From positions 3,235,899-3,299,898 of the forward strand of contig NZ_CP059888.1 of assembly GCF_016469335.1 (NCBI RefSeq): a stretch of 64,000 bases of DNA. Direction: 5' to 3'. Shown piece after piece: positions 37,040-41,574 of this stretch (position 1 is the stretch's first letter; every line of letters begins with the position of its first letter). The translations under genes were made by a program, and so were the position numbers. Source of the DNA: Flocculibacter collagenilyticus (GTDB taxonomy: Bacteria > Pseudomonadota > Gammaproteobacteria > Enterobacterales > Alteromonadaceae). Under the pieces are notes generated by a model that saw only the letters and a list, made by a program, of their open reading frames with translations, had not been told where the DNA came from and ran no database searches.

Positions 37040-38302
37040 CTAGTCAAAATCACCGTATTTATAAAGCTCCTTGCCCTTTTCTCCAATAATCAGCATTCGA
37101 TGTGCTTCAGTAACCCAAGGCCATTCTAACTTGTTAATCTGATCAGAAATAACTGAGTCACTTACCGCAAATTTGCGATGTTGATTATTGGCTCTAAGGT
37201 ATTTCTCGGTTAGCTGAAAAGCAACTATAGTGATTAATGCACCATAGTTTTCGCCTAATTGGCAAATAACACTTCTAAAATCTTTACGGATATTCGTCGC
37301 ATCCCAAACTACATTCCGTTTATTTGCTAATGCACTTTTTAACCGAGATTTAGCGAGTTGTAATACTTGTCCGCGATTTTTTTGGCACTCACGTTTACCA
37401 TTTAACGCCTTACGAATTTCATCTAACGAAATAACTTCAAAACCGTCGAGGTTATTCTCAATCCAAGTCGATTTCCCGCTACCGCTAATACCGCACATAA
37501 TGAACAGATGGCAGTAATGCTGACTGAGTTCATAGTTTTTAGCTGTCGCCTCTTCAATGGTACTGATTTGGCCACTTGCCAGTTGCTTAATGGCATAACC
37601 ATTTAAGAATGTTTGCTCATAATGAGAGGGCTTAACTTGAATTCTCTTCAATTGGCTTTCAGTTGGATCGTTAACTTGCCAAAGATCATAATCTTCAGCA
37701 AACAGCTTAAACTGCGCGAGTAAATCAAGCTGGGCATCCAAGTCATCGCAATATCGTCCTTTCATATCAGCCATTTCTAGCCAATACAACAGCGCTAGAT
37801 CCGCATTTAAAGACAAATTAAAGTAGTCGTTATAATCCTTATTTCTTACCACTAAAAGCTTAGGTACTTGATGAAAGCCAACCAGCCCTATGATAGTTAT
37901 TATTGATTTATGCGCCAATGGCAGTGCAATTAATCGTGTTGCTAAATAGCCAGCCCCCACTTCTTCATGCTTTGGTGCCACTACTCGCTCGATACCTGAA
38001 ATGTCTTTCCGTCGGGTGGTTATCGGCTTTGCAATATCATGCAGTAAGGCAGCCAAAATTAATATTTGCCGTTGCACACCTTGGATATGACTAGCTTCCG
38101 AGCTTAATAACTTATACAGCTCACCTAAAACCATGTTGGTATGAATAGCTACATTTCCTTCAGCATGCCATACCTTATCTTGCTCAGTGCCTTCAAATTC
38201 GTGTAATAGTGGGAAGTAACTCCCTAAAAAAGAGACACATTCATCAAAATCGGGGGTGTGATCTAAAGCTAAGCTGTCTAACCATGATGTTAGCTTATTC
38301 AT
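37040..38302 (-). CDS. HD-Pnk-type RNA end-healing enzyme (N-terminal HD phosphohydrolase + C-terminal P-loop polynucleotide kinase)
   Basis: HD motifs (HAEGNVAIHTNMV ... LLHDIAKP); Walker A MCGISGSGKST in the C-half. Overlaps the rnl stop by 8 nt. Confidence 0.7.
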   Translation of the reverse strand: MNKLTSWLDSLALDHTPDFDECVSFLGSYFPLLHEFEGTEQDKVWHAEGNVAIHTNMVLGELYKLLSSEASHIQGVQRQILILAALLHDIAKPITTRRKDISGIERVVAPKHEEVGAGYLATRLIALPLAHKSIITIIGLVGFHQVPKLLVVRNKDYNDYFNLSLNADLALLYWLEMADMKGRYCDDLDAQLDLLAQFKLFAEDYDLWQVNDPTESQLKRIQVKPSHYEQTFLNGYAIKQLASGQISTIEEATAKNYELSQHYCHLFIMCGISGSGKSTWIENNLDGFEVISLDEIRKALNGKRECQKNRGQVLQLAKSRLKSALANKRNVVWDATNIRKDFRSVICQLGENYGALITIVAFQLTEKYLRANNQHRKFAVSDSVISDQINKLEWPWVTEAHRMLIIGEKGKELYKYGDFD

Positions 38303-38954
38303 CTTCTTCTCCCTTATTTTTTAACGGTATATTGCTCGCTAAGCGATTCGGTACAACTTCAGCATGCATCCAGTGCTTATCGGTAACCACGTGATTGGTT
38401 CTTACCCATTTTGAAACGTTTTGAGCAAAGTTTTTAAAGTGAAAACCTTCAGCCACTCGCACAACGTAACCTTCCTGATGCTTGGTATCTAACACCATAT
38501 TTTTAATTGTTTTTTCACACCATAAACCGATATATAGCTCTTTTGGTGTAACTAAACCAAGCTGATTAAAAAACGCTTTACTGTAATCCCAGCTTAAACA
38601 TTCATTGCGCTCATTCCATACTGAAAAAGCCATGAAATAACTGCTCAAAGCGCGGTATTCAATAGAATGTTTGGCGTACAGGTTTTCACCACAAATTCGC
38701 CAGCCTTGAGGGATTTTATAACCAATTTTCGCTTGTAGCGCCTTAACCCAAGCTCGTGATGGATGAAAGCGACTATCTAGCGAGCGGGCATGCACATAGT
38801 TAGGATATATGGTGGTGTTTTCACCATCCATTTTCTCAGTTACAACAACTTGCTTGCCAGTAAAATAACTTAAATTACCTTGGTGGATATCGTCGCTTGT
38901 AGCACCCGGTGACCAAGGTAAATGCGGGGTGCGCGGATATTTAAATCTCATCAT
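38295..38954 (-). CDS. ATP-dependent RNA ligase (Rnl-family, KxDG nucleotidyltransferase motif I)
   Basis: VVVTEKMDGENTTIY = ligase motif I (KxDGxN); 219 aa. Confidence 0.65.
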   Translation of the reverse strand: MMRFKYPRTPHLPWSPGATSDDIHQGNLSYFTGKQVVVTEKMDGENTTIYPNYVHARSLDSRFHPSRAWVKALQAKIGYKIPQGWRICGENLYAKHSIEYRALSSYFMAFSVWNERNECLSWDYSKAFFNQLGLVTPKELYIGLWCEKTIKNMVLDTKHQEGYVVRVAEGFHFKNFAQNVSKWVRTNHVVTDKHWMHAEVVPNRLASNIPLKNKGEEDE

Positions 38955-39120
38955 ATAACTCCATTTTTACTTCGTTAAGTGTCGAGCAATCGCTCGACTT
39001 TTAAATAAAAAAGCACAGCAAAACGTTCCCGTGAAATAGTATTACGAGATGTCTGCATTGCTGTGCTGAGATGGAATTACATGGTTCTGTCCTCTGTACT
39101 TGTTACTTTGTTTTTTGTGC

Positions 39121-39148
39121 TTTATTTGATGTACTTTATTTGATGTAT
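39121..39148. repeat. 14-bp direct repeat x2 (tttatttgatgtac / tttatttgatgtat) in the 204-bp intra-operon gap
   Basis: Seen directly; the hairpin gtcgagc-aatc-gctcgac at 38977-38994 lies in the same gap. Confidence 0.5.
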
Positions 39149-39158
39149 TGTGTACTCG

Positions 39159-39488
39159 CTACGTTAACCTTAAATAGCTACTCACAGTTTGTTTGATAAT
39201 TGAGACTAACTCTTCATCCATGTATTGATACTCATCTGGAATATCAAGTACTTGTAAATCTTTATAATCTAGAAGCCGAGTAAACTGTGCTTTTAGCCTA
39301 CTTTTGTGTTTTTCTTCCATAACGAAAATCACATCTGCCCACTCAATGTCTTTTACATTTACCGTGCGTTTGGCTTTTGGGCTTGTTCCAGCCGATCTTG
39401 CTGCAACCTCTGGATGATTTTTCCAGACTTGCTCGCCCGTTGGGCTACGCCACTGGTTTCTACTACATATAAATAAAAGGTTTTTCAC
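39159..39488 (-). CDS. low-molecular-weight phosphatase-family protein (CX5R P-loop; LMW-PTP/ArsC-like)
   Basis: LLFICSRNQWRSP = [LIV]CxxNxxRS P-loop; DP general-acid motif (VLDIPDEY); single Cys; 109 aa. Confidence 0.55.
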   Translation of the reverse strand: MKNLLFICSRNQWRSPTGEQVWKNHPEVAARSAGTSPKAKRTVNVKDIEWADVIFVMEEKHKSRLKAQFTRLLDYKDLQVLDIPDEYQYMDEELVSIIKQTVSSYLRLT

Positions 39489-39704
39489 TTATTCATCCTT
39501 AATAGGCATTTCATCATCTAATGTTTGCCTAAGTGTCTTTCTTGGGTACTCGATACCCAGCTGTTTGGCTCTATGCAACTTCTCTGAACGACGATACGTT
39601 AACTTCCAGTTTTTCTCTGGAGTATGTCTTTTCTCTGTGAGTAGTGCTGCTTTATTTTTCTTTTGCTTTGACCGTCTCCAAAGCTTGTTTCTAGTACTGA
39701 ACAT
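39489..39704 (-). CDS. small basic protein (71 aa, no recognised family)
   Basis: Lys/Arg-rich N-half; its stop abuts the start of the phosphatase gene, and it lies between prfH and the phosphatase gene. Confidence 0.35.
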   Translation of the reverse strand: MFSTRNKLWRRSKQKKNKAALLTEKRHTPEKNWKLTYRRSEKLHRAKQLGIEYPRKTLRQTLDDEMPIKDE

Positions 39705-39784
39705 ATTAAATACTCTATTAATTATCGGATTTTGCAGCCGCGATAATACGAAGAGTTTAAATACCCTTGGGTACCTATCTCGCC

Positions 39785-40411
39785 CTAGTCAACTAGAGCG
39801 AATTTTTCGTCTTTAAATGTTTTTACTGGGTTGCCGCGCTCCAACTCCCAATGTTGTTGCCAGCGTGCTTTTTCTTGCAACGACAATTGTGCATGCTTGG
39901 TCGCTTCTAGTTTTTGAAATAATAATGCCCTAGCTAAACGCTTATTAGCATGCTGACTTCTTTCACTTTCAACTCTTACTGCCACTCCCGTCTCGGTGTG
40001 TACAGCCCTAACCGCAGAGTCCGTTTTATTAACGTGTTGTCCGCCAGCTCCCGACGCCCTACACGTTTGAAAAGTAATGCTTCGATCAAACTGAATATCA
40101 TTTATTTCGTACATGTGTCCGCTAAAAAACCAGTTTTTACGCTTATGCTTTGATCTAAACTGACTTTGGCATACCCATAACATGGTTCCCTGCCAAGATG
40201 CAGCTAACCGCTTGGCATCTGGTGTTTTGCCAGAATCAAGCTGCATTAATACAGATTTAAAACAAGCCGGCGTGCTCATTTCAATGGCTTCAATAGTTTC
40301 TAGTTTTATACCTTGTGCTTTACATTGTTTTTCAATTGCTTTTAGCGCTAACCCTACTGCGTTTCCACATTCAACAGGCCCTTGGCCTGCGGATAATTGA
40401 AGTAATATCAT
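39785..40411 (-). CDS. prfH: peptide chain release factor H
   Basis: [16 protein letters not shown] (compare E. coli PrfH MILLQLSSAQGPEEC) and [19 protein letters not shown] motif. ATG 40411 overlaps the rtcB2 TGA (ATGA coupling); the track start at 40420 is TTG. Confidence 0.9.
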
Positions 40412-41574
40412 GATGAACAATTTCCATTTGTTTTAAAGGTTAAAACCGGGCGCAATTTTGCCACCACGTCAATAAGACCAGCATCAACCATATCGCTAAT
40501 CACTGTTTCACATTTTTTATAGGCTTGTGGTGCTTCATCGTATAAAAGCGCTTTATTACCACATACCACCCGGCTACCCAACGCCGTTCGATATAAGTCT
40601 TCACGCTTGTACTTATGACCTAACCGACTATGGCACTCACCACGCTTCCATTTCCTTCCTGCACCGTGTGCTAAAGAAAATAAACTTGTCGACATGTTTT
40701 CATGCTTATTGATCAATGGCTTTACCAAATAGCTATAGTCACCGCGCGAACCAGGAATCACTACATAGCCGTTGTCACTTGGTGTTGCACCTTTTCTATG
40801 TAACCAGCCGGCTTGTTCATCAATTACTTTAGGTGAAACCAAATTGTGATTTACATCTAGAGTGCAGTAACCATTAGTTCTTATCGCTTCTAAAAAACGT
40901 TTGGCAATTAATTCGCGATTAAGCTCTGCCCAACGAACAGCTTCATTATGCTTATTCATGTAATCAAGAAAGTCTTCGTCCATCTCGGTTAAACCGTCAT
41001 GATTATGCGCCGTAATATGATTAACCAAAATTGATTGCCCCAAGCCTCTAGAGCCAGAGTGTACTAGCAACTGTAAATGTTTTTCATTTAAGCCGAGCTC
41101 CGTTAGAGCGGTTTGATCATAAACATGTTCAATGGCCTGAAACTCGGCAAAATGATTCCCTCCACCAATAGTGCCTAAAGCATGATCAAAGGCATTGATG
41201 GTTATGCCTTTCTCAGCTTTGCGCGTATTAATAATCGGTGACCAGCTTTCATCTAAAGGGTGTTCTATATGCTCAAACTTTTTAGCTAATTTATCTATAT
41301 TTACCTTGGACACAGCCTTTGAGGTTTGCCATAACGCCATACCACAGCCAATATCATTACCTACCAAAGCAGGATAGATCTTATTCGTTGTGAAAAATGC
41401 CGCTCCAATTGGATAGCCTCTTCCTGGATGCAGATCTGGCATGCCGGCAACACGGTGCATACCAGTTAATGTTGATGTTTTTATCAATTGTTGAATTGCT
41501 AGCCCTTCAATCCACGTATTTGCAGATGCAATTAGGCTAACGTTTTCAGTAATTTTTTGGACGGATTTGCCCAT
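40408..41574 (-). CDS. rtcB2: RtcB-family RNA ligase, PrfH-associated paralog (RtcB2)
   Basis: 388 aa; RtcB motifs ([32 protein letters not shown]); translationally coupled to prfH. Confidence 0.9.

Follow-up and report, generated by a model that had tools for sequence, protein, structure and literature searches.

We analyzed a 64-kb stretch of the Flocculibacter collagenilyticus genome (contig NZ_CP059888.1, hereafter the window) that carries a string of six open reading frames (ORFs): rtcB2, prfH, a basic 71-aa ORF, a 109-aa ORF resembling low-molecular-weight protein tyrosine phosphatases (LMW-PTPs), rnl, and HD-Pnk. We lean towards reading this string as a composite RNA-damage-response operon that was put together from separable modules in an RNA-repair island and in which each module is gated by its own leader. 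This reading is based on the observed gene identities, synteny, and modularity, and on leader structures with their conservation and covariation. The first module would be rtcB2-prfH, extended by an LMW-PTP-fold phosphatase with a basic helical N-terminal domain that would be split into 71 and 109 aa in Flocculibacter. The second would be rnl-HD-Pnk, a predicted end-healing and sealing cassette. To our knowledge, no known system other than RtcB2-PrfH undoes the damage that ribotoxins do to ribosomes. Each gene pair is already known, RtcB2-PrfH having been characterized in E. coli and HD-Pnk in Runella, and the joined string is a variant. The locus is a natural genetic link between RtcB2-PrfH and Rnl/HD-Pnk. 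The two leaders are undescribed as far as we checked (Rfam and the prfH literature).

We scanned one genome per species, together with metagenomes, with an Rnl alignment and annotated 160 rnl loci by tblastn with the Flocculibacter proteins. We observed rtcB2-prfH directly upstream of rnl in 20 of these 160 sampled loci, spanning at least six gammaproteobacterial genera. Composite loci were found in Motilimonas (three species), five Pseudoalteromonas species (among them P. luteoviolacea, P. rubra, P. ardens, and P. gelatinilytica), Endozoicomonas, two Alteromonadaceae/Kangiellaceae genomes, and four metagenome contigs; metagenome contig L085 was distant (RtcB2 55% and PrfH 44% identical). The PTP gene lay between prfH and rnl in 14 of the 20 composite loci, and strand and gene order were invariant in all 20. 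Because the string recurs in 20 of 160 independent rnl loci, its order is far beyond chance. The initial annotation of this DNA had linked RtcB2-PrfH to Rnl and HD-Pnk, and that link is conserved across genera.

The two modules also occurred apart. Of 80 genomic loci, 77 had HD-Pnk after rnl, for the most part with no prfH, and this widespread cassette stood alone in Marinobacterium, Photobacterium, Pleionea, Zooshikella, and ~55 actinomycete loci. Nine prfH loci that we sampled apart from the Rnl scans all lacked rnl-HD-Pnk (E. coli, Ralstonia, Skermanella, Methylosinus, Aureibacter, Thiodictyon, a Shewanella-derived IncC plasmid segment, Colwellia, and Paraglaciecola). The first five of these carried rtcB2-prfH by itself, and Colwellia and Paraglaciecola carried rtcB2-prfH-PTP without rnl in otherwise syntenic islands. 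The E. coli rtcB2 locus was reached by tblastn of PrfH on plasmid-collection records; searching all complete E. coli genomes with the rtcB2 region by blastn gave no match because the sequences are too divergent. As the modules are apart in most genomes, the string represents recurrent accretion of separable modules rather than an obligate six-gene machine.

Altered forms of these genes were seen at two loci. In Vibrio sp. Of7-15 (L003, 9361-9831), the rtcB2 leader with its upstream ORF (uORF) and ribosome-binding site (RBS) was kept, and rtcB2, prfH, and the 5' part of the PTP gene were gone. There the leader lay ~55 nt upstream of the PTP remnant, after which came rnl with its own leader intact and then HD-Pnk. 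This arrangement looks like a deletion derivative. On the Klebsiella IncC plasmid NC_021667.1 (L251, 2600-4550), rtcB2-prfH with a marine-type uORF leader lay beside qnrA6, and the 3' end of the pair was truncated by a sul1 integron segment. The pair appears to have moved onto resistance plasmids together with qnrA.

We then considered the proteins, whose initially proposed identities were borne out by matches to TIGR03073, TIGR03072, PF01451, PF09414, and PF01966 with PF13671. Rnl and the phosphatase showed 100% identity to F. collagenilyticus proteins at NCBI. RtcB2 scored 525.9 bits against TIGR03073 (cut-off 271.8) and 549.7 bits against NF007153 (cut-off 407), and Cys/His metal ligands and an HGAGR motif were readable in its translation. 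PrfH (208 aa) scored 250.5 bits against TIGR03072 (cut-off 166.65), and has the GGQ motif and lacks domain 1. The window thus holds the parts of an RtcB2-PrfH module: an RtcB paralogue from the clade associated with PrfH, a PrfH without domain 1, and rtcB2 placed upstream with a stop/start overlap. The RtcB2-PrfH operon of E. coli ATCC25922/CFT073 likewise places a TIGR03073-clade rtcB2 immediately before prfH, the stop of the one overlapping the start of the other (PMC9304027, PMC9223846, PMC1586002), and its rtcB2 is preceded by a uORF leader of the same design as that of Flocculibacter. What follows the pair differs: pepD on the opposite strand in E. coli, and the basic-domain/LMW-PTP gene and rnl-HD-Pnk in Flocculibacter. 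E. coli RtcB2-PrfH rescues and repairs colicin-E3-cut ribosomes (PMC9304027, PMC9223846). Accessory genes reported for the RFH-RtcB system encode a TPR protein, a Pol-beta nucleotidyltransferase, a ZnR protein with a charged region, and a charged helical protein (PMC6514570). The accessory list in the main text of that paper contained no phosphatase, ATP-dependent ligase, or HD-Pnk.

Colwellia, Shewanella, and other bacteria have proteins of 180-188 aa whose N-terminal ~74 aa aligned with the entire basic ORF and whose C-terminal part corresponds to the 109-aa phosphatase; the Flocculibacter TAA falls in a variable linker. In P. luteoviolacea NCIMB 1944, the basic part and the phosphatase are in one frame with no stop between them. 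By alignment, the two ORFs represent the halves of a single protein that other genomes encode as a fusion, a point on which the initial annotation needs revision. We found 62 clusters of the basic domain among 1.8 billion cluster representatives, most of them stand-alone and ~70 aa long. As fused proteins are also found, split and fused forms both exist. A structure model of the basic ORF gave three helices at low to moderate confidence, and the ORF had no match in Pfam, NCBIfam, or PHROG.

The phosphatase scored 33.9 bits against PF01451 LMWPc (cut-off 23.2) and is ~40 residues shorter than canonical LMW-PTPs. Its P-loop, CSRNQWRS (C8-S-R-N-Q-W-R14-S15; C-X5-R-S), was invariant in 12 of 12 aligned homologues and has R and W at the canonical LMW-PTP G and C positions. 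A DIPDEYQY stretch was also invariant and might correspond to the DPYY loop of LMW-PTPs, which carries their general-acid Asp. Foldseek matched the phosphatase model to TT1001, YwlE, Wzb, and ArsC (E 4e-6 to 1e-3, template modelling (TM) score 0.5-0.6 on target), and the modelled fold is that of LMW-PTPs, arginine phosphatases, and ArsC. The family comprises at least 5,518 proteins, of which the best 120 matches were 70-88% identical to the query; the best matches came from Colwellia, Shewanella, Vibrio, Paraglaciecola, and other gammaproteobacteria. The PTP gene is solitary at times, as in Vibrio aerogenes and Amphritea. By its gene context, this phosphatase may act on RNA ends or on the ribosome. 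The basic-domain LMW-PTP-fold protein is a third partner at this locus, and in other genera its gene makes up an operon of three with rtcB2-prfH.

Two observations concern the region between prfH and the PTP gene. The basic-domain/PTP gene's 5' untranslated region (UTR; 39705-39784) contained a near-invariant block, CUCUUCGUAUUAUCGCGGCUGC..CCGAUAA, common to Flocculibacter, Pseudoalteromonas, Colwellia, and Shewanella, which may form a small hairpin (UAUCG...CGAUA). Outside Flocculibacter it was located at L002 9230-9285, L161 6920-7000, and L163 ~380-440. In Endozoicomonas (L009, 8880-9470), a ~195-aa ORF (MTVITAAIKDGKVCISADTQ...) lay between prfH and the PTP gene.

Rnl scored 110.7 bits against PF09414 RNA_ligase, and its motifs KMDG, CGEN, EGYVVR, and KWVR were invariant in 17 homologues. 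A sequence search of the PDB gave no relative. The closest folds to the Rnl model (predicted local distance difference test 79) were T4 Rnl2, the Naegleria RNA ligase, and archaeal Rnl adenylyltransferase domains, all of them loose resemblances (TM ~0.5, 13-16% identity). Rnl is a bare catalytic nucleotidyltransferase domain without an accessory domain. Strong PHROG matches showed that this ligase family is also present in phages. PADLOC, which models known anti-phage defence systems, assigned no family to any of the eight proteins. HD-Pnk matched PF01966 HD at residues 70-140 and PF13671 AAA_33 at residues 266-393. Its kinase region also matched TIGR04075 and the C. thermocellum Pnkp kinase domain 4gp7 (E 2.8e-8), and the motifs LLHD, GISGSGKST, and SLDEIR were readable.

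An HD and P-loop kinase protein with a ligase-like ORF immediately upstream and overlapping it is the arrangement of a LIG/HD-Pnk cassette. In the Runella slithyformis cassette the ORFs overlap as well, with a 152-nt spacer upstream of LIG (PMC6097658). The Runella cluster resembles that of Flocculibacter in the order of its genes, in the N-terminal HD and C-terminal P-loop kinase domains of HD-Pnk, and in a ~150-200-nt spacer between the ligase and an upstream two-gene cassette (PMC6097658). That upstream cassette is Tpt1 with MTase-HIT in Runella and rtcB2-prfH-(basic)PTP in Flocculibacter; we likened the two by published description. The same logic is found in T4 Pnkp with Rnl1/Rnl2, in Pnkp-Hen1, and in Pnkp1-Rnl-Hen1 (PMC4411300), where a kinase and a phosphoesterase make 5'-OH and 2',3'-cyclic phosphate (2',3'>P) ends fit for joining by an ATP-dependent ligase. 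The Flocculibacter phosphoesterase is an HD domain, whereas that of Pnkp-type systems is of the DxDxT or calcineurin type, and its ligase is a bare ~215-aa domain, unlike those of the Pnkp-type healing-and-sealing systems. The string does not conform to Pnkp-Hen1 or Pnkp1-Rnl-Hen1, as it contains no methyltransferase and has HD in place of a metallophosphoesterase. HD-Pnk would convert 2',3'>P or 3'-P and 5'-OH ends to 3'-OH and 5'-P ends, which Rnl would seal with ATP.

The genes of the string are closely packed (Table 1). The rtcB2 TGA (40410-40408) shares bases with the prfH ATG (40411-40409) as ATGA (40411-40408), and the rnl and HD-Pnk ORFs overlap by 8 nt (38302-38295, ATGAATAA). Both overlaps were as first annotated. 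The basic-ORF stop does abut the phosphatase start, as had been noted; the start is a GTG and not an ATG, lies directly 3' of the basic-ORF TAA, and has AAGGA 7 nt upstream. The CX5R motif (residues 8-15) requires a start upstream of it. An 80-nt gap between prfH and the basic ORF was absent from the initial annotation. The gap between the PTP gene and rnl (39158..38955) is 204 nt, and rnl orthologues align to the second ATG, at 38951. The hairpin at 36999-36970 has an 11-bp stem, AAAGTTACCTA/TAGGTAACTTT, bordered by A- and T-runs. It is a probable bidirectional terminator, although a simple terminator scan did not call it.

We next examined the leader of rtcB2. It comprises three consecutive, partly overlapping helices, in which neighbours share 3-5 nt. 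Its parts are the Shine-Dalgarno (SD) sequence of the uORF (AAGGAG, 41763-41758), UGCAGGUCUU in the uORF body (~41726-41717), the downstream arm AAGACCUGCCAAUAC (41639-41625), and the rtcB2 RBS GGAAUUGGUAUU (41587-41576). In helix A, UCCUUUGCAG can pair with the SD region of the uORF. Helix B joins UGCAGGUCUU to the downstream AAGACCUGC, and helix C joins the next bases, UGCCAAU(U/A)C, to the rtcB2 RBS GGAAUUGGUA. We observed a strong SD and a 13-15-codon uORF in 20 of 20 rtcB2 loci examined, from gamma- and betaproteobacteria. The Flocculibacter uORF reads MTYTSKSFAGLVR followed by a stop, and the nucleotides UCCUUUGCAGGUCUU were invariant among the marine gammaproteobacterial loci. Beyond Alteromonadales, the same design was present in E. 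coli (L253, 1690-1867; uORF MTNPLSMTLCRPFQD and stop), Ralstonia (L252, 2700-2867), Proteus (L258), and the Shewanella-derived IncC plasmid copy (L251). In E. coli, Proteus, and Ralstonia the uORF peptide was not conserved, while the embedded helix arm was.

Compensatory changes supported this structure. Helix B was represented by GCAGGUCU:AGACCUGC, GCAGAC:GUCUGC, GCGGACA:UGUCCGC, and GCAGGCC:GGCCUGC, and helix C covaried as CCAAUUC:GAAUUGG versus CCAAUAC:GUAUUGG. The 7-bp core of helix B paired in 125 of 126 cells (18 leaders) compared to 26-51% when slid, with four pairs doubly changed; in this count the helix arms had been excised around conserved anchors beforehand, which favours the structure. 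The leader looks like a translation-coupled attenuator, in which the 13-codon uORF contributes an arm to a chain of helices reaching to the rtcB2 RBS. In ermC-type leader-ORF translational attenuators, a helix likewise joins a ribosome-occupied stretch to a downstream RBS. We found no mention of a leader or uORF upstream of rtcB2 in the prfH literature as far as we checked, and control of RtcB2-PrfH expression was not addressed there. As the uORF leader is present in E. coli strains already used experimentally, the idea is testable at once.

The gap upstream of rnl contained a second, conserved leader of ~145 nt, which has three helices and an invariant AUG-UAA and in which the rnl SD is masked. 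It has an SD-like GAGGA (39094-39090), the start-stop AUG-UAA (39082-39077), and an anti-SD UUCCAUC (39076-39070). Helix P1 pairs 39083-39071 with 38964-52 (CAUGUAAUUCCAU is complementary to AUGGAGUUAUAUG) and includes the rnl SD GGAG (38962-59). P2 pairs 39067-58 with 39021-12 and is followed by a U-run, and P3 pairs 38998-92 with 38987-81. The initial annotation had noted a hairpin and a 14-bp repeat in this gap, and both are present (38998-38981; 39104-39147). The hairpin, GTCGAGC/GCTCGAC, lies 18 nt upstream of GGAG and is P3. The earlier proposal of a regulatory or processing site in the gap thus stands as to regulation, with the three-helix leader as the element in place of the repeat or the lone hairpin. 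The tandem repeat (Tandem Repeats Finder: period 14, 3.1 copies, 83% matches, two exact copies) was not shared by orthologues; in Motilimonas eburnea an unrelated repeat of 9 bp occupies the equivalent position. For this lack of conservation we ruled out the 14-bp repeat as a regulatory site.

The RNA of the gap folded better than its shuffles (z = -3.8). In a 12-sequence alignment, P1, P2, and P3 paired in ~79-80% of cells compared to 26-44% when slid, and 12 pairs were doubly changed, mostly in P2 and P3. P1 was recovered in most orthologues folded individually, and its duplex beat shuffles (P <= 0.017) in 17 of 21 class 1 leaders. A true compensation was seen in L013 (AACACC with GGUGUU). 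A covariance model built on this alignment gave a single match per locus, in every case immediately before rnl and nowhere else (1.19 Mb), including nine loci outside its training set. The leader was also present without upstream rtcB2-prfH in Bacterioplanes and in Marinobacterium, in the latter after unrelated bacterioferritin genes. It belongs to the rnl-HD-Pnk cassette and moves together with rnl. Neither leader had an Rfam match (cmscan of 28000-44000, E <= 1), the sole match being a tRNA-like element (~31035-31105).

All aligned leaders had an unchanged ATGTAA ~100-145 nt ahead of the rnl start, and this was the commonest hexamer at -170..-60 of 154 rnl loci, occurring in 30. The 3' partner of AUGUAA varied (UUAUAU, UUACAU, AAAUAU, UUAAAA) and AUGUAA never did, so AUGUAA is under constraint in its own right. 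In the ~20 class 1 leaders, an SD-like element (GAGGA, AGGAG, or AAGGA) lay 6-9 nt upstream of the AUG with a spacer that was not fixed (L081, AGGAGAAAAUA). The motif therefore reads as an SD-AUG-UAA start-stop, with the form GAGGA-N7-AUG-UAA in Flocculibacter. Start-stops preceded by an SD bind ribosomes in E. coli, where those of yecJ/hslR are internal to genes and have small effects (bioRxiv 10.1101/520783). As in those and in the plant NIP5;1 AUGUAA and eukaryotic 5'-UTR elements (PMC13338717), the AUG is directly followed by a stop, and an SD precedes the AUG in the bacterial cases. The Flocculibacter start-stop differs from the gene-internal E. coli ones in its conserved structured leader and adjacent anti-SD; ribosome occupancy here is putative. 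Should it prove functional, bacteria would have a conserved start-stop in a 5' leader whose mechanism is defined. Viral contigs scanned for GGA-N7-ATGTAATTCCAYC yielded 83 matches, none of them beside rnl or another gene of the cluster, and we attribute these to chance.

The actinomycete rnl loci L018-L080 (Streptomyces, Nonomuraea, Kitasatospora, and Catenulispora) were without an AUGUAA leader. Their rnl genes shared an upstream motif, (A/T)TTCGATGGAGGC ... C(C/T)TACAGTGAC, at about -90 to -20, which looks like a conserved promoter or operator.

Several observations weigh against a conserved, SD-masking start-stop leader. The P1 duplex was not above shuffles in the close relatives L008, L011, and L012 (where the register shifts onto start codons), in L081, or in class 2 leaders. 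P1 hardly varies in its 5' strand, and its support comes mainly from consistent pairing and from changes that are one-sided or wobble; true double compensations are few. Class 2 leaders (L019, L031, L032, L035, L085, L090, L103, and L105), which were grouped by AUGUAA and weak duplex scores and for which P1 is not claimed, have no clear SD before AUGUAA and thus lack the bacterial form of a start-stop. RNAalifold on the raw MAFFT alignment of rnl leaders gave no pairs because the interior hairpins are out of register, and we used per-sequence folds, the named structure, and the covariance model instead.

In the mechanism that we propose, translation of each module would be gated separately by its own structured leader. 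P1 would hide the rnl SD and leave the SD of the start-stop free, outside the helix. A ribosome that initiates on the AUG would have UAA in its A site, shield the anti-SD, and so free the rnl SD, and its dwell time on the start-stop would set the amount of Rnl and HD-Pnk made. Ribosomes with a damaged decoding centre might still initiate and be unable to decode or terminate normally. On this basis we tentatively suggest, as a view we hold with less than even confidence, that the uORF (for rtcB2-prfH) and AUG-UAA (for rnl-HD-Pnk) are ribosome-occupancy sensors. Damaged ribosomes would dwell on the mini-ORFs and remodel the RBS-masking helices, after which intact ribosomes would produce the release factor and direct ligase first and the end-healing back-up next, with the basic-domain PTP resetting ends between the two chemistries. 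The two conserved leader RNAs, a uORF with an embedded helix arm and a start-stop by an anti-SD, give testable predictions for the sensing of damaged translation.

The rnl leader could instead be an SD-masking RNA that responds to a ligand, a protein, or temperature, as a riboswitch or thermometer does, with AUGUAA kept as a binding site or as the partner of a UUACAU spacer. Its three-way junction with SD sequestration, a P1 rich in A-U and G-U pairs like RNA thermometers, and the class 2 leaders that keep AUGUAA without an obvious SD are consistent with such an RNA. We consider it quite improbable, since pairing alone does not explain an AUGUAA that never varies while its 3' partner does, and an SD-like element precedes it in all ~20 class 1 leaders with a spacer that is not fixed. 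A riboswitch in particular is disfavoured, as conservation is confined to the SD-like element, AUGUAAUUCC, and GGAG and does not extend to junctions and loops. A further choice is whether the string is one transcript or two. Judging from spacing, the string is likely co-transcribed, as a single unit that would begin upstream of the rtcB2 leader and finish at the hairpin that follows HD-Pnk. One transcript is favoured by the constant strand and order, by three overlapping or abutting junctions, and by the position after HD-Pnk of the one strong hairpin with A- and T-runs. In L013, L015, and L017 the SD of the rnl leader begins just 16-30 nt past the stop of prfH or PTP, which leaves no room for a separate intergenic promoter. 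The initial annotation had allowed for an internal promoter in the gap; our promoter scan found no sigma-70-like site upstream of the leader in Flocculibacter, its only match overlapping the rnl start codons, and does not support one. Two (or three) independent units set side by side, with rtcB2-prfH-PTP ending at P2 and its U-run and rnl-HD-Pnk starting from its own promoter in the A-rich, repeat-containing spacer, seem rather unlikely to us. The rnl leader and cassette do exist behind unrelated genes and must have a promoter there, and the two modules are apart in most genomes. P2 of Flocculibacter, a 10-bp stem followed by UUUUUUAUUU, resembles an intrinsic terminator, so that read-through into rnl may be partial, which counts against a single transcript. 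This U-run is not conserved, however, most orthologues having CUAUUUC or UUAAAAC.

The initial annotation also offered a functional reading, in which RtcB2 and Rnl/HD-Pnk are alternative chemistries for the same broken RNA, possibly damaged rRNA in stalled ribosomes. Spelled out, the lesion would be a cut 16S rRNA, and Rnl/HD-Pnk would be a back-up once the ends are unfit for RtcB. The linkage to prfH in 20 loci is in keeping with this, separate translational gating would keep incompatible end chemistries apart, and RtcB2-PrfH has published activity on E3-cut 16S rRNA, for the E. coli proteins only (PMC9304027). However, rnl-HD-Pnk occurs mostly without prfH, including in actinomycetes and phage-like contexts, which suggests that its substrate is not specific to PrfH-rescued ribosomes, and end-healing by HD-Pnk would destroy RtcB substrates. 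The sequence gives no pointer to rRNA over tRNA or mRNA. Runella LIG was self-adenylylated but sealed none of the 3'-OH/5'-PO4 substrates tried (PMC6097658), which tells against a shared substrate and also against sealing by Rnl in the mechanism proposed above. We therefore regard a common 16S rRNA substrate as doubtful.

Table 1. Features of the string and its leaders. Coordinates are those of the window.
Feature	Coordinates	Strand	Description
rtcB2	41574..40408	-	PrfH-associated RtcB-family 3'-phosphate/5'-OH RNA ligase; TIGR03073, PF01139
prfH	40411..39785	-	Release-factor homologue H; TIGR03072
Basic 71-aa ORF	39704..39489	-	Equivalent to the N-terminal helical basic domain of fused basic-PTP proteins
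LMW-PTP-fold phosphatase, 109 aa, GTG start	39488..39159	-	PF01451
rnl	38954..38295	-	~215-aa stand-alone ATP-dependent RNA-ligase-like nucleotidyltransferase domain; PF09414
HD-Pnk	38302..37040	-	HD phosphoesterase and P-loop 5'-OH polynucleotide kinase; PF01966, PF13671
rtcB2 leader	41575..41773	-	Helix chain with uORF, conserved in 20 of 20 rtcB2 loci
rtcB2 uORF, 13 codons	41749..41708	-	SD AAGGAG upstream
5' UTR of basic-domain/PTP gene	39705..39784	-	Near-identical block across genera
14-bp tandem repeat	39104..39147	-	Tandem Repeats Finder; A-rich spacer after PTP stop
rnl leader	38949..39095	-	Three helices and start-stop AUG-UAA
Hairpin after HD-Pnk	36970..36999		Read directly from the sequence; 73-bp convergent gap

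We also assessed the neighbourhood of the string. The string converges on an RtcR-controlled unit. The unit consists of rtcR (29180-30784, minus strand), a sigma-54-like TGGCAC-N5-TTGT, a tRNA-like element, an SPFH protein, rtcB1, rtcA, RlaP, and a 384-aa protein. With this unit facing the string, the locus is an RNA-repair island. Colwellia psychrerythraea and Paraglaciecola marina have the same island without rnl-HD-Pnk, in which rtcB2-prfH-PTP faces RlaP/RtcA/RtcB1.

Between rtcR and SPFH-rtcB1-rtcA-RlaP (30925-31349, plus strand), the sigma-54-like site TGGCACGTGACTTGT was followed by the tRNA-like element at ~31035-31106. This element scored 51 bits against Rfam tRNA and was reported by ARAGORN as 'tRNA-???' with a 2-nt anticodon; tRNA-like genes lay at the equivalent place in L008 (17976-18046) and L057 (10281-10356). 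It is reminiscent of the tRNA-like Y RNAs in Salmonella rsr-rtc operons. The 384-aa ORF after RlaP (35812-36966, plus strand) had no Pfam, NCBIfam, or PADLOC match. Its listed TTG start overlaps RlaP by 95 nt, which suggests that the true start is probably later. In Methylosinus, a HEAT-repeat protein was encoded two genes after prfH.

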